Shown here one piece after another: positions 4,836-38,936 of a DNA stretch of 38,955 bases. Both the position numbers and the translations under genes were made by a program. This DNA is from a virus. The notes below the pieces were generated by a model, which did no database searches, was not told the DNA's origin, and was given only the letters and a program-made list of their open reading frames with translations. The stretch is from positions 1-38,955 of IMG/VR virus record IMGVR_UViG_3300001528_000417; one strand, given 5' to 3'. Each line of letters begins with the position of its first letter. Positions within the stretch are counted from its first letter, which is position 1.

Positions 4836-4859
4836 AAACCGCCTTTTTACGGGCGGTTT
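4836..4859 (-). terminator. Rho-independent terminator after the DUF4926-like gene
   Basis: Minus strand reads AAACCGCC-CGTAAAAA-GGCGGTTT followed by TCTTATGC. Confidence 0.7.
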
Positions 4860-5016
4860 AGTCTATTACGTTCTCAATTTCTGACGAAGAAATCAATTCA
4901 GTTATATAATCTCCGCCAATATCAATGTCAACGACATAATCATCGCCAATGAGGTCAACCACAGAACCTTTTCGCCCGTCTTTAAGCAAAACAGTATCAT
5001 AAAGTTTAATTATCAT
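4858..5016 (-). CDS. DUF4926-like small protein (candidate antitoxin/immunity partner)
   Basis: 52 aa, not in the ORF track: MIIKLYDTVLLKDGRKGSVVDLIGDDYVVDIDIGGDYITELISSSEIENVID. Overlaps the upstream gene by 11 nt. Followed by a terminator. Confidence 0.6.
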   Translation of the reverse strand: MIIKLYDTVLLKDGRKGSVVDLIGDDYVVDIDIGGDYITELISSSEIENVID

Positions 5017-5602
5017 CGTTCCTCGTCACCTTCTTCTTTGTCACATATGCGCTTGTAAGCCGCGGTTCAGTCTTGCCATTCTCAATTATCCAGCTAGTGC
5101 AAACGTTAGCCTGCTTGCCATTAGCACCAGTCAGGCACATTACATATTCATAAAGCTGACCGTGGTCATTTGAACCTTTTAGTTTTAACTCGCTTTCATC
5201 AAGGTTTACAGAGATGTTGTCGATAAGTTCTTGATAATTGTCCATTGTATATCCCAAGGCTTCACGAAAAGCGCGTGCTTTGTCAGGCTGTCTCAATGGA
5301 TCAAGAGCATATTTTGTGAACTTCTCTTTCTTAATTTCAGCAAAATACTGCAAACTTATTTTTACCGGCTGTTTTTTATCTATTATACCACTTCCGCCCG
5401 AAATGTCAACCCCGTTTCCACTCGTAAACCGTCCATTTTTGGGGTCGTGGTTCGGGTTAAAGCGGAGTTCTTCCGCCTGCTCTTGCAGCTCCCTTATCTC
5501 CGCTTCAAGCCTGCGTATTTCCTCGTCCTTGCTGTTTGCTTCCAGTATCAAAGAACGCGCAAATTCCGCCGCGCATTCGTACATTGTTTTGTAATCCGTC
5601 AT
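5006..5602 (-). CDS. Cassette protein X1: conserved N-terminal module plus DUF6883-like C-terminal domain
   Basis: 198 aa. The N-terminus is shared with X2 and X3. The C-terminus KFTKYALDP..PDKARAFREALGYT...GQLYEYVM..TSWIIENGKTEPRLTSAYV matches the DUF6883 pattern. ATGA overlap with terS. Confidence 0.7.
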   Translation of the reverse strand: MTDYKTMYECAAEFARSLILEANSKDEEIRRLEAEIRELQEQAEELRFNPNHDPKNGRFTSGNGVDISGGSGIIDKKQPVKISLQYFAEIKKEKFTKYALDPLRQPDKARAFREALGYTMDNYQELIDNISVNLDESELKLKGSNDHGQLYEYVMCLTGANGKQANVCTSWIIENGKTEPRLTSAYVTKKKVTRNDDN

Positions 5603-6171
5603 GTTTCTTCCTCATCTTCCCCGCCCGAGAGCAGAGCTATAAGCGGGTTTTCTGCCGCCTTTGACGGTTCTTTCGGAATGGTTCTAAGCGCCGCCGAAAC
5701 CGTCATGCAGTTCTCTTTTTCAATGTCAAACATCATCTTTCGCTTCTGCATTATTGCGCTGTCATACCCCACTATTGCCTTGTGCAATGCCGTAAGCTGC
5801 TTTGAAAATGCTATAATCTCATCAAATTCCATACCGTCAAGCTCGGCAAATTTCTTCTCAAGCGCGTCGGCGGTTTCGTACAACATTTTCTGCTTATCCT
5901 CAAAGTCCAGACACTCCGAATAGATCATGCAGTATCGGTTTATCACAGGTCCGTACAGCGCATCATTCTTCCCGATAGCTTTCATCAACTTGTTCAGCCG
6001 CAGAAACTCCCTATGCGCGACCTTGTGCGCCTTTACCTCGCCTCGCTCGAACAATTCCGCCCCGCTGAGCATTGCCTTTTCTCCGTCGGCTCGCACCGCA
6101 AGTTCCGCCTTTGTCCTATGCGATTTCTTCTCCTCTGTAATGACTGCCACAGGCTTTGACGGTCTCCCCAT
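5599..6171 (-). CDS. terS: Terminase small subunit, P27 family
   Basis: 190 aa. The MGRPSKP... N-terminus and HNH neighbour are typical of P27-type TerS. SD GGGGGTGAGG. Confidence 0.75.
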   Translation of the reverse strand: MGRPSKPVAVITEEKKSHRTKAELAVRADGEKAMLSGAELFERGEVKAHKVAHREFLRLNKLMKAIGKNDALYGPVINRYCMIYSECLDFEDKQKMLYETADALEKKFAELDGMEFDEIIAFSKQLTALHKAIVGYDSAIMQKRKMMFDIEKENCMTVSAALRTIPKEPSKAAENPLIALLSGGEDEEET

Positions 6172-6214
6172 TTCCTCACCCCCTACTTTCCAATCTCATT
6201 TTGGGAATATTTTG

Positions 6215-6234
6215 TCTACAGCCATGGCTGTAGA
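6215..6234. repeat. Perfect 20-bp palindrome in the HNH-terS intergenic region (candidate packaging/cos-associated site)
   Basis: TCTACAGCCATGGCTGTAGA, followed by the GC-rich tract CCGCCCTCAACCCCGCGGGAGGTAGGGGGG. Confidence 0.4.
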
Positions 6235-6303
6235 TGTCGCCCGAATCCGCCCTCAACCCCGCGGGAGGTAGGGGGGATACGAAATATAAATTTTATTATA
6301 AAT

Positions 6304-6705
6304 TCAAATTATGCTAATTCCCGCACCGTTTTCCTGTTCGGCGGCAATATCCAGCAGTTCCCGCGCAGGTATTCGACCGCGTTCGGCAAGCTCGTGGTGA
6401 TAGCGACAAAGTGTGATAAGGTTGCTATTGTCAAGCCGCCTGTCGAAGTCTGTCGCAAGTGAAATAATGTGATGAACGGACAGATCGCGGCTGTTGAACT
6501 TTTTGCGGGAATTGTACAGACCCCGCACGCACACCTGACACAAATTCATATCGCGCTCGCGTATCTCGTCCGCCTTGCGCTTCCAGATCTGACGGTTACG
6601 GAACGCATACGCTATGCTGTCCGACCTCGCCTGTGCTGCGCCGCAGGCTGTACAGATATAGTTTCTGTCGTGTATCTTTCCACACTTGCCGCACGCTTTT
6701 TTCAT
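6304..6705 (-). CDS. HNH endonuclease (packaging-associated)
   Basis: 133 aa. CxxC...CxxC plus the HHIISL...N..TLC..HH motif. Lies immediately upstream of terS. Confidence 0.85.
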   Translation of the reverse strand: MKKACGKCGKIHDRNYICTACGAAQARSDSIAYAFRNRQIWKRKADEIRERDMNLCQVCVRGLYNSRKKFNSRDLSVHHIISLATDFDRRLDNSNLITLCRYHHELAERGRIPARELLDIAAEQENGAGISII

Positions 6706-6728
6706 ACTTCACCCCGCAAATAAAAAAT

Positions 6729-6753
6729 CGCTGTGCATTGCTGCATAACGCTT
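6729..6753 (-). repeat. Conserved hairpin/U-tract/RBS element, diverged copy E
   Basis: Minus strand reads AAGCGTTATGCA-GCAA-TGCACAGCGATTTTTTATTTGCGGGGTGAAGTATG. Lies directly before the first late gene. Confidence 0.6.
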
Positions 6754-6811
6754 GAATGTGTTTTCCGCTTTTTTCACTATATCAATTATAGCACATTTAT
6801 CGGCGTTTGTG

Positions 6812-37838: not shown

Positions 37839-37867
37839 TTGACATTCCACAGAGGATATGCTATAAT
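37839..37867 (+). promoter_or_regulatory. Consensus sigma-70 promoter on the plus strand
   Basis: TTGACA-17 nt-TATAAT with the extended GGATATGCTATAATA. Confidence 0.65.
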
Positions 37868-37873
37868 AGATTT

Positions 37874-37952
37874 AACAAATCCTTTGTGGGTTTGGGTTGA
37901 TAACGGTAACGCTTTACTTCCTACGGTGCAGCGTTGCCGTTATTTCTTTATG
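37874..37952 (+). ncRNA. Candidate antisense sRNA of about 75 nt (sar-like; ends approximate)
   Basis: Promoter, then a 14-bp hairpin (37900..37913 / 37930..37943, with a G-U pair valid only on the plus strand), then TTCTTTAT. Antisense to the RHH-ant intergenic region and the RHH 3' end. Confidence 0.5.
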
Positions 37953-38116
37953 TCGCATTCCAACTTTGCTATACCTCGTCGAATTGCTTCGGCTCTACTA
38001 ACATCTTCCTGCTTTGAATATTTATCAAGAATTTCAGTTGATTTCTCATCAAGCCTAACGTGTATCGGCGTGCCTTTCTTATTTTCGGTTGGTCTGCCTG
38101 TTCTCGGACTCATCAT
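37940..38116 (-). CDS. Ribbon-helix-helix (Arc/CopG-like) regulator
   Basis: 58 aa, not in the ORF track: MMSPRTGRPTENKKGTPIHVRLDEKSTEILDKYSKQEDVSRAEAIRRGIAKLECDIKK. SD GAGGTGA. Confidence 0.65.
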   Translation of the reverse strand: MMSPRTGRPTENKKGTPIHVRLDEKSTEILDKYSKQEDVSRAEAIRRGIAKLECDIKK

Positions 38117-38145
38117 ATCACCTCACTTTTGTAGCCCATAATTGC

Positions 38146-38174
38146 ATTATACACTAATGTAGCCCAAAAGTCAA
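38146..38174 (-). promoter_or_regulatory. Promoter of the RHH gene with flanking direct repeats
   Basis: TTGACT (38174..38169)-17 nt-TATAAT (38151..38146). TGGGCTACA is repeated on both sides of the -10. Confidence 0.7.
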
Positions 38175-38197
38175 GAGGTTTTTCAAAAATATTTTTC

Positions 38198-38232
38198 GCA
38201 TAAGAAAACAGCCTTGATTTCTCAAAGCTGTT
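38198..38232 (-). terminator. Rho-independent terminator
   Basis: AACAGCTTTGA-GAAA-TCAAGGCTGTT (11-bp stem) followed by TTCTTATGC. Confidence 0.75.
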
Positions 38233-38353
38233 CCCTTAGAATATTGGTCATTTGGCAGGCGTACAGTTCTCCTGCATCTCTCGGGTTTCCCCTGTCATAC
38301 CGTCGGCGTGTGGATTGTACGAAATTTTCCACCTCAAATGACCTTTCTTATCT
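38233..38353 (-). ncRNA. Candidate structured RNA (or 32-codon TTG-initiated peptide mRNA) with its own promoter
   Basis: Promoter TTTACA (38389..38384)-17 nt-TATAAT (38366..38361). A 9-bp closing stem pairs 38335..38343 with 38246..38254. Three internal hairpins; two loops are complementary (CGUACA/UGUACG). Confidence 0.45.
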
Positions 38354-38372
38354 TACTAGTATTATAGCATGA

Positions 38373-38936
38373 TTATTCCGATTTGTAAAGTACTTTTTTA
38401 TTTTTTATTATACGTTTCCAATCCTTTTCGTTAATTTTCATAAACGTGATAATAGAATTTTTAAACTCTGGATTATCCGAAGATGTAACAAGACGTAAAA
38501 CAGTTTTAAATTTCTCGCCATTTTTTTGAATTTCTTTTAAAATCAATGCGGTACTTGGTCTGTTGGCTTCAATAATATAATCCGGGTTTTCAATAATCTC
38601 TTTAAAATAAGCACTGAATCTTTCATAATCGTTGGGATGTCTTTCTTTTATATGATCTATCTGCTTGTTTGTAATAACAACCTCATCTGTTATAATATCT
38701 GATGTAATGCACTTATACTTCCGAATGTCAATTTTTCCTACCTTATTCACTCCACTTCCGCCCCCACTCCCACTCGTAAACCGTCCGTTTTTGGGGTCGT
38801 GGTTCGGGTTAAAGCGCAATTCTTCCGCCTGCTCTTTCAGCTCCCTTACCTCCGCCCGAAGCCTTAGTATCTTCTCGCCCTTTGCGTTCGTTTCCCGTAT
38901 AAGGCTGCGCGCCATTTCAACAGCGGCTTCATACAT
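38373..38936 (-). CDS. Cassette protein X2: conserved N-terminal module plus PBECR-like putative nuclease domain (the ORF crosses the circular junction)
   Basis: 187 aa in the window. On the circle it extends to the ATG at 93..95 (MERVESKTADYERMYEAA...). C-terminus ...VVITNKQIDHIKERHPNDYERF..IIENPDYII...KTVLRLV...SIITFMKI resembles phage BECR-fold nucleases. Confidence 0.65.
   Translation of the reverse strand: MYEAAVEMARSLIRETNAKGEKILRLRAEVRELKEQAEELRFNPNHDPKNGRFTSGSGGGSGVNKVGKIDIRKYKCITSDIITDEVVITNKQIDHIKERHPNDYERFSAYFKEIIENPDYIIEANRPSTALILKEIQKNGEKFKTVLRLVTSSDNPEFKNSIITFMKINEKDWKRIIKNKKVLYKSE

Follow-up and report, generated by a model that had tools for sequence, protein, structure and literature searches.

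A shared leader and junction motif on three polymorphic effector-like cassettes of an HK97-like gut phage

Introduction

The IMG/VR virus record IMGVR_UViG_3300001528_000417, analysed here over its full length of 38,955 nucleotides (positions 1 to 38,955, called the window), carries three dispersed genes, X1, X2 and X3, that begin with the same short module, end in unrelated domains and are each followed by a small gene or RNA. The locus raises the question of what such genes do inside a phage morphogenesis operon and how their products could reach a target cell when they lack a MuF domain. An original prediction, made from the DNA letters alone, took them for polymorphic toxin/immunity cassettes and supposed that the shared module associates with the capsid or portal or serves in delivery. 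We put the probability at about 0.62 that the phage carries three polymorphic effector cassettes, of which two are intact and one is disrupted, and that these are loaded into the virion by the leader and its junction motif independently of MuF. The C-terminal domains are predicted to be toxic, two of them being BECR-fold RNase-like domains and one a helical hairpin of no known family, and the element behind each, a DUF4926-like protein, a 70-aa protein or a skipping-rope RNA, would be its putative neutraliser. Four things had escaped the prediction: that X3 contains a stop codon, which family the RNA belongs to, a predicted promoter in the linker, and a rearranged gene order. Related loci and proteins are cited below by L and P numbers.

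One N-terminal module on three unrelated C-termini

All three genes lie on the minus strand, at the positions first proposed. The first 75 nt of the window recur exactly at its end (1-75 = 38881-38955, a direct repeat), so the contig is circularly closed with a true length of 38,880 bp, and X2 runs across the window ends.

5006..5602, minus: X1, 198 aa; leader, motif, linker and DUF6883 (BECR-Tox3) RNase-like domain
38373..38955, minus: main part of X2, 200 aa in all; leader, motif, linker and PBECR2 nuclease domain
76..95, minus: first seven codons of X2 (MERVESK), across the circular junction
32152..32646, minus: X3; leader, motif, linker and helical-hairpin domain, interrupted by TGA, a probable pseudogene
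5459..5593, minus: X1 leader helix, residues 4-48, a helix in the AlphaFold2 (AF2) model at a predicted local distance difference test score (pLDDT) of 75-82
5417..5467, minus: X1 junction motif LRFNPNHDPKNGRFTSG, invariant in all three copies

The N-terminal module common to the three genes is made up of a helix, the motif LRFNPNHDPKNGRFTSG and a Gly/Ser linker. At the DNA level it forms a 224-nt direct repeat in three copies, X1 and X3 being 90% and X1 and X2 71% identical, which is far beyond chance; over about 70 aa the corresponding protein identities are 95% and 74%. A four-sequence alignment of the module has 44 invariant columns, and beyond GGSG(I/V) the three proteins are unrelated, so that the proposed arrangement of shared N-terminus, Gly-rich linker and unrelated C-termini holds for the repeat and the protein alignment alike. 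The X2 leader has fallen to 71% DNA identity, yet it retains every motif residue. The junction consensus reads (F/Y)NPxHDxxxG(R/Q)F(T/A)SG, and motif and linker are predicted to be disordered (AF2, pLDDT <50; residues 48-86 in X1).

A word-index homology search with the leader alone returned one protein, and an exhaustive profile search with the module was required; this gave 233 proteins at E <= 1e-3. The whole leader stands at the N-terminus of about 40 distinct proteins (43 counted, from the profile search and a full-length X1 search). Their C-termini form at least 14 similarity groups and include Ntox50, CdiA_C, two HExxH types, ART-like and barnase-like domains, and HAD with PBECR2. Leader identity falls to about 40-60%, yet the leader remains attached to many different C-termini. 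Several short DUF6883 proteins (P0152-P0159, P0193, P0200) have another leader and a variant junction, (H/N)W(T/V/I)K(G/N)xxG(Y/R)F(T/A)GS, before a Gly-rich stretch; after that junction P0152-P0159 continue with the SGII linker and LQYFA site seen in X1. This suggests several leader families built to one layout.

Cargo domains and their companions

Residues 89-189 of X1 match Pfam DUF6883 (PF21814; E 2e-17, 63.9 bits against a gathering cut-off of 27), as proposed. In the AF2 model this C-terminal alpha+beta domain consists of three helices followed by a four-stranded sheet (pLDDT 85-95), and its best fold match in the PDB is the CdiA-CT toxin 6cp9 of Klebsiella pneumoniae 342 (probability 1.0, TM-score 0.61-0.67). 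DUF6883 has been equated with BECR-Tox3, for which a conserved downstream DUF4926 and frequent Phage_Mu_F fusions are described (bioRxiv 10.64898/2026.08.28.747851). The 12 viral loci inspected all have DUF6883 at the end of a MuF-like protein, and all have a homologue of the 52-aa gene that accompanies X1, which either overlaps the DUF6883 gene or adjoins it on the 3' side.

4858..5016, minus: companion 1, 52 aa, a divergent putative immunity protein of the DUF4926 family, overlapping the X1 end by 11 nt
5339..5359, minus: ISLQYFA, a motif resembling an L27/Prp-type cleavage site, directly before the DUF6883 domain

The claim that companion 1 is DUF4926-like stands through its relatives: the window protein itself has no match to Pfam DUF4926 (PF16277) even at E <= 10, while companions that occupy this position in other phages share 37-77% identity with it, and 5/9 of those aligned match DUF4926 (best E 1.5e-17). 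No [LIVM]x[LIVM]QxF[AS] peptide other than ISLQYFA occurs in the six reading frames, and MuF-fused DUF6883 homologues have INLQLFA, IDLQLFA and similar peptides at this position. The capsid and scaffold proteins of 80alpha have this L27-type site, at which Prp, a protease of the host, cleaves them between F and A (PMC5744158).

X2 ends in a PBECR2 domain (PF18810), also as proposed, with residues 79-198 covering profile positions 6-120 of 120 (E 1.6e-16, 61 bits against a gathering value of 27.1); a match to phrog_29609 (E 1.7e-57) is confined to the same C-terminal domain. The structured RNA that had been noticed behind this gene belongs to a named family, skipping-rope.

38247..38342, minus: skipping-rope RNA (RF02924), companion of X2
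38361..38389, minus: promoter of this RNA, TTTACA-17-TATAAT (with TG), inside the X2 3' end
38201..38238, minus: intrinsic terminator ending the RNA, from fold and sequence

The family match covers model positions 1-80 of 80 at 56 bits against a gathering value of 36.7, and the fold in the window has z = -6.5. In most of the related PBECR2/RNA loci shown, the stop codon is likewise followed by a TGnTATAAT. In all 16/16 viral loci with downstream sequence (L026-L041), a skipping-rope RNA lies downstream of PBECR2 within about 35 nt and on the same strand. Approached from the other side, a search with only the RNA core gave 68 viral contigs (L079-L146), and in 56/68 an open reading frame (ORF) of the PBECR2 type ends 34-72 nt upstream of the RNA. 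PBECR2 and skipping-rope RNA are thus a tight pair. A few skipping-rope copies follow small SH3-like ORFs instead (L081, L094, L095). We considered a 36-aa ORF within the RNA region as a possible peptide product; neither its length nor its frame is conserved in L026 and L028, and for this reason the companion of X2 is taken to be the RNA rather than a peptide.

Type III toxin-antitoxin systems such as ToxIN have an antitoxin RNA made up of tandem repeats upstream of the toxin gene, which is processed by the toxin. The skipping-rope RNA differs from this pattern, being a single copy downstream of the nuclease gene with its own promoter. The family was described as having a compelling association with nearby protein genes, as not self-cleaving and as being followed by a terminator (Weinberg et al. 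2017, PMC5737381); compared with that description, here it lies directly 3' of a PBECR2 gene, in the position where an immunity gene would stand.

X3 is disrupted. Its codon 13 is an in-frame TGA (32608..32610) where X1 has TGC, and no in-frame start codon follows. TGA ends 16 other genes of this genome and is therefore an ordinary stop here; recoding or selenocysteine insertion is disfavoured for the same reason and by the aligned residue, which varies between Cys and Ala among homologues. We read the codon as a nonsense mutation or a sequencing error, and intact genes of the X3 type occur elsewhere (P0012, P0221, P0201). The C-terminal domain has no Pfam match, and a word-index homology search gave no candidate. 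AF2 models it as a helical hairpin (pLDDT >90), for which a structure search of the PDB returned generic helical hairpins only, at E above 0.9.

31947..32159, minus: companion 3, 70 aa, with an 8-nt overlap at the X3 stop

Companion 3 travels with the X3-type C-terminus, at 51% identity in L009 and 80% in L148.

Exchange of cassettes at fixed loci

The original prediction had proposed that aligning related phages would show C-terminus and companion swapping while the N-terminus and flanks stay constant, and this pattern is seen in L066 and L150. L066 is a near-identical sequence in a human-gut Ruminococcaceae metagenome-assembled genome (MAG; CABSJT010000157). At locus A, between TerS and the protease, it is 93% identical to the window from TerS to the GGSGII codons (window 6033..5373) and 97.7% identical again from 4822 through protease and capsid. 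The interiors are unrelated: 550 nt in the window, holding DUF6883, companion and terminator, and 982 nt in L066, holding an HExxH domain, a 62-aa zinc-ribbon ORF and a 64-aa ORF. L009 has an X3-type C-terminus with a 70-aa-type companion at the same locus. At locus B, between the chaperone gene and TerL, the flanking proteins of L150 are 98-99% identical, and PBECR2, the RNA and two adjoining genes (RHH and Bro) are replaced by two cassettes, one with CdiA_C and one that is barnase-like and has a Cys-rich 64-aa ORF. Locus C, between portal and tape measure protein, holds only a 60-aa ORF in L149. A scan of metagenomes, which reached saturation on loose patterns, recovered one locus.

C-terminus and companion therefore swap as a unit at the same loci among near-identical phages, and the boundaries of exchange are sharp, with the linker on the 5' side and a terminator or hairpin element on the 3' side. 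Together with the 14 or more C-terminal groups, the swaps in L066, L009 and L150 bear out both the polymorphic toxin/immunity architecture and the cassette exchange that had been proposed. Three of the features by which polymorphic toxins are recognised are present: a conserved N-terminus with unrelated C-termini, a downstream companion that co-varies with them (a matter of linkage only), and cassette polymorphism at a fixed locus.

A predicted promoter at the junction and the elements that bound the cassettes

The linker is also the site of a predicted promoter, and the 3' edges of the cassettes are marked by terminators and by a recurrent hairpin element.

5382..5409, minus: sigma-70 promoter TTGACA-16-(TG)GTATAAT inside the GVDISGGSGII codons of X1, 12/12 consensus
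32417..32444, minus: X3 linker copy of the 12/12 promoter
4832..4857, minus: intrinsic terminator after companion 1 (ACCGCC..GGCGGT + TTTTCTT)
4753..4831, minus: hairpin element copy 1 (AGCGTTTTGCA-N6-TGCAAGGCGCT, T-run, ribosome-binding site), ahead of the prohead protease and at the 3' limit of the exchangeable cassette
32648..32719, minus: hairpin element copy upstream of X3
31863..31941, minus: hairpin element copy between companion 3 and the tape measure gene
36877..36955, minus: hairpin element copy preceding a 34-aa ORF and TerL

Only seven sites in the genome match the consensus at 12/12, two in X linkers and five outside the X genes, and the score of the X1 promoter was reached by 0/2000 shuffles. 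Hexamers and spacing are kept in L066 (peptide VDISTNGGII), L009 (VDKSAGSGII), L001 and both L073 copies. MuF-type loci have 10-12/12 matches just upstream of DUF6883, where the peptides differ (LDKSAGSGII, VENSDDNDII, VEKIGKRGTI). From consensus and conservation, the promoter is predicted to transcribe the companion gene independently of the late operon.

The flank GTTTTCTTATGC(A/G)AAAA that X1 and X2 had been noted to share (about 4823..4840 and 38193..38210) is real and is the T-tract end of two intrinsic terminators; in X1 it lies at the 3' edge of the exchangeable cassette. The hairpin element is about 79 nt long and occurs in four copies in the window, each with an 11-bp-stem hairpin, a T-run and a ribosome-binding site, and it has no match in Rfam. 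It looks like a terminator ahead of late genes, which suggests antitermination control.

The junction motif in other phage proteins

The motif is present in 140/150 top proteins of the exhaustive search, in two to ten copies in 69 of them, with a median spacing of 228 residues and 30% Gly in the ten residues that follow. Hits beyond the whole-leader proteins match the motif alone, and these are polyvalent proteins. A Pfam census of 121 motif proteins found Peptidase_S78 in 11 and S78_2 in 4 (prohead protease 15), portal in 5 and MuF in 1, the rest being toxin-type domains. Portals joined through the motif to a further domain occur in L002, L005, L006, L008 and L067, and in relatives' portals the motif takes its canonical form, NPNHDPKNG(Q/R)F, with extra domains behind it. 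The L071 portal has ELRFNPNHDPKSGEF at its end, and a DUF6883 domain and a homologue of companion 1 come next. In this prophage of a Ruminococcus MAG (L071 10001-10565) the portal ORF stops just past the junction motif and DUF6883 continues in another frame; a frameshift, a programmed shift or an error in sequencing would each account for this. The motif-like segment that had been noticed in the portal of the window is present, although as a degenerate copy:

33722..33754, minus: NPYHAKDGKFT, about residue 423 of the portal, followed by a C-terminal extension of ~95 aa

PBECR2 with skipping-rope RNA is also found on MuF-like proteins in other phages, and MuF carries DUF6883 or PBECR2 cargo without the junction motif. 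The same cargo can therefore be seen to ride on MuF, on the portal or on the leader, on the last two by way of the same motif. Taken together, these sequences identify the motif as a recurrent inter-domain junction signature of phage polyvalent proteins. Term searches of the papers on MuF toxins (PMC5576092) and polyvalent proteins (PMC5512222) found no description of it; the 2012 polymorphic-toxin paper (PMC3482391) was not searched for the motif.

Comparison with known systems

The X locus clearly works with the same parts as MuF polymorphic toxins and polyvalent proteins. MuF toxins of temperate phages (Jamet et al. 2017, PMC5576092; Zhang et al. 2012, PMC3482391) likewise have variable C-terminal toxins in a head-morphogenesis operon with a small putative immunity gene, and they share the cargoes, both DUF6883 with a DUF4926-type companion and PBECR2. 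Unlike them, the X genes have a helix of ~45 aa and an NPxHDxxGRF motif in place of MuF, are dispersed in three copies per genome rather than being one gene after the portal, and include a partner that is an RNA. No MuF domain (PF04233, PF06152 or relatives) was matched in X1-X3 or among the other window ORFs scanned, in keeping with what had been predicted; because this is the domain that defines MuF toxins, the X locus falls outside them.

Polyvalent proteins, which phages and conjugative elements encode, combine PBECR, ART, zincin, GNAT and Zeta effectors, and fusions to portal and MuF have been described (Iyer et al. 2017, PMC5512222). The effector repertoire is that of the leader/motif proteins, but X1-X3 are separate genes with one effector domain each, as if unbundled, and having one effector per gene they stand apart from a class marked by at least two effectors per polypeptide. 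One relative, P0003, is a true two-effector form with HAD-like and PBECR2 domains.

The internal proteins of phage T4 and the HK97 prohead protease offer a model for how a small leader could act: a short terminal peptide targets the cargo to the prohead, with a processing site between the two. We use these targeting peptides as a working model for leader and junction; there is no sequence relationship, and a profile comparison with the protease tail was negative. The sharp boundary before the variable part has parallels as well. Contact-dependent inhibition (CDI) and Rhs systems exchange cassettes at a conserved pre-toxin junction (VENN-like), and colicins keep a constitutive immunity promoter inside the structural gene. 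The X cassettes likewise have a sharp junction before a variable toxin-immunity unit and a predicted immunity promoter inside the toxin gene. They differ in the junction peptide and DNA, and in that junction and predicted promoter are here the same 28 nt.

Genome content and gene order

The window is the genome of an HK97-like siphophage.

5599-6171: TerS (phrog_83, E 6e-9)
4142-4756: S78 prohead protease
2966-4129: capsid protein with an N-terminal scaffold region
1135-1791: major tail protein (phrog_88)
35031-36725: TerL
33431-35020: portal
28206-31865: tape measure protein, from position, length and size
about 24934-28196: distal tail proteins
37940-38116, minus: RHH (ribbon-helix-helix, CopG-like) gene, between the X2 cassette and TerL
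36953-37708, minus: Bro-N gene, between the X2 cassette and TerL
38146-38174, minus: predicted promoter ahead of the RHH and Bro genes
37839-37867, plus: perfect promoter, in the opposite direction to that of RHH/Bro

On the minus strand the order is TerS, X1, protease, capsid, connectors, tail tube, chaperones, X2, TerL, portal, X3 and tape measure. This is non-canonical, since more distant relatives (L002, L019, L025, L071) have the canonical TerS-TerL-portal-protease-capsid order, and copies of the leader stand at all three breakpoints. L066, L009, L150 and L149 repeat the portions that they span, so the order is real and heritable, and misassembly at the repeats as its source is ruled out by the recurrence of the junctions in L066, L009, L150, L149 and L073. 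The simplest cause of the rearrangement is, we infer, recombination between leader repeats. L073 is a decaying prophage with a 98% identical TerL; it reads TerS-X-X-TerL with the entire capsid block gone, and a tandem pair of leader-bearing cassettes occupies L073 8850-10713 between TerS and TerL. The remnant adjoins a serine recombinase, and its portal is interrupted by an insertion sequence (IS) element (DUF4096).

The start of X1 overlaps the stop of TerS (ATGA), and that of X2 overlaps the stop of an upstream 160-aa gene, a probable tail chaperone, in a junction that recurs in L150. Because the gene ends overlap, X1 and X2 can be translationally coupled to TerS and the probable chaperone. 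The RHH and Bro genes look like a further insert at the chaperone/TerL locus, as L150 is without both. Elsewhere in the window, a 127-nt direct repeat (21988-22114 and 23079-23205, 86% identical) lies where gene orientation switches, and each copy holds a plus-strand 12/12 consensus promoter (22044, 23135). Genes for a PcfJ-like protein and a Rep (ORF2/G2P-like) protein (10494-12050 and 12548-13426, both minus) suggest a replication module of a plasmid or ssDNA-element type. Exact-protein look-ups of two window proteins gave no match.

Proposed mechanism and its alternatives

In the mechanism that we favour, leader and motif would form a MuF-independent signal that carries the effector into the procapsid. 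The exposed junction would permit processing, and X1 would also have an L27/Prp-type LQYF|A site before the RNase domain. The effector would enter the next cell along with the DNA. The sigma-70 promoter in the linker would meanwhile transcribe the companion independently of the late operon, which would make lysogens and producing cells immune. As handles for recombination, the leader repeats and hairpin elements would generate the diversity of the cassettes and would be the source of the lineage's rearranged gene order. The role in capsid or portal association, or in delivery, that was first proposed for the leader is plausible and is the best-supported mechanism, through circumstantial evidence of the guilt-by-association kind: loading into the virion is plausible because the motif joins the same cargoes to portal and prohead protease and because these cargoes also occur on MuF.

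Several points weigh against this account. The presence of X proteins in virions and their toxicity are predictions, and an HK97-type protease inside the prohead could destroy the cargo. The original prediction could not place the module in a named family, and searches of Pfam, PHROGs and PDB sequences found no relative of the leader helix, only coiled-coil noise. The DYxxxYE start of the leader looks by eye like the C-terminal tail of the prohead protease, but hhalign gives such mimicry a probability of 0.1, which leaves it a weak lead. ISLQYFA in X1 is a possible release site by sequence resemblance only, and the linker promoter is a consensus match whose conservation is partly confounded with that of the peptide VD..GII. 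A leader-only ORF also exists (P0001) and, with X3 inactivated, it indicates that individual cassettes are dispensable.

Alternatively, the cassettes may be toxin-immunity or toxin-antitoxin morons that act in the lysogen or the producing cell and are never packaged, with the leader serving as a coiled-coil oligomerisation or regulatory segment; abortive infection, addiction, kin discrimination or release as bacteriocins at lysis would be possible roles. Like morons, each cassette has a predicted promoter and terminator of its own, X2 is followed by RHH and Bro genes with theirs, the leader lacks homology to any head protein, and cassettes persist in the decaying prophage L073, whose portal is cut by an IS element. 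The full-length X genes, however, have no upstream promoter of their own, and X1 and X2 overlap the ends of TerS and chaperone in the late operon. The predicted internal promoter lies downstream of the leader and therefore cannot express the full-length protein, and identical pairs of cargo and companion are elsewhere fused to MuF, portal or prohead protease. We consider packaging-free action of this sort unlikely, though it deserves to be taken seriously.

Far less probable is that the leader directs the proteins to a secretion system of the host (e.g., as an LXG/WXG-like domain, to type VII secretion), by which lysogens would export toxins against competitors. A helical N-terminus, variable toxins and adjacent immunity genes are indeed found in the LXG toxins of Firmicutes, and Ntox50 and CdiA_C also occur in secreted polymorphic toxins (PMC3482391), but neither LXG, WXG nor any other trafficking domain was matched in Pfam, the leader has a length of only about 45 residues, all contexts seen are phage head or tail operons, and the junction motif characterises proteins fused to portal or protease. 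It is more improbable still that the repeats share no function and are either neutral leftovers of a duplication that took place recently or an artefact of assembly. The 90% DNA identity of the X1 and X3 leaders, the end of L001 just past the repeat and the unusual gene order could be read in this way; the junctions nevertheless recur in independent assemblies from different samples (L066, L072, L009, L150, L149, L073), the leader is kept at about 40-60% identity on many different C-termini, and the X2 leader, at 71% DNA identity, keeps all of its motif residues. We therefore retain MuF-independent loading of polymorphic effectors as the best explanation.

Implications

A broader proposal is offered tentatively and is somewhat doubtful when its two halves are taken together: that the helical leader with its (F/Y)NPxHDxxG(R/Q)F junction is a general, unnamed signal for capsid loading and processing of every polyvalent cargo domain, whether fused to portal or protease or standing alone, and that skipping-rope RNA is the RNA immunity factor of PBECR2 nucleases. 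If true, a polymorphic toxin system would have an RNA-based antidote and an orphan structured RNA would be explained. Through its pairing with PBECR2, the function of this RNA, an orphan motif of nine years' standing, can be tested directly.

The predicted linker promoter offers a testable answer to how immunity could be expressed while the late operon is silent, and it would explain both the conservation of the junction at the DNA level and its role as a recombination boundary. The junction motif is a handle with which cargo domains in very large polyvalent proteins can be found and delimited, and it is a concrete candidate for a processing site. Phage polymorphic toxins are now recognised mainly through MuF, whereas here the same cargoes ride on a leader and junction of ~70 residues that is absent from annotation libraries; phages without MuF, in this case HK97-like phages of gut Ruminococcaceae, may for that reason carry arsenals of effectors that have gone unrecognised.

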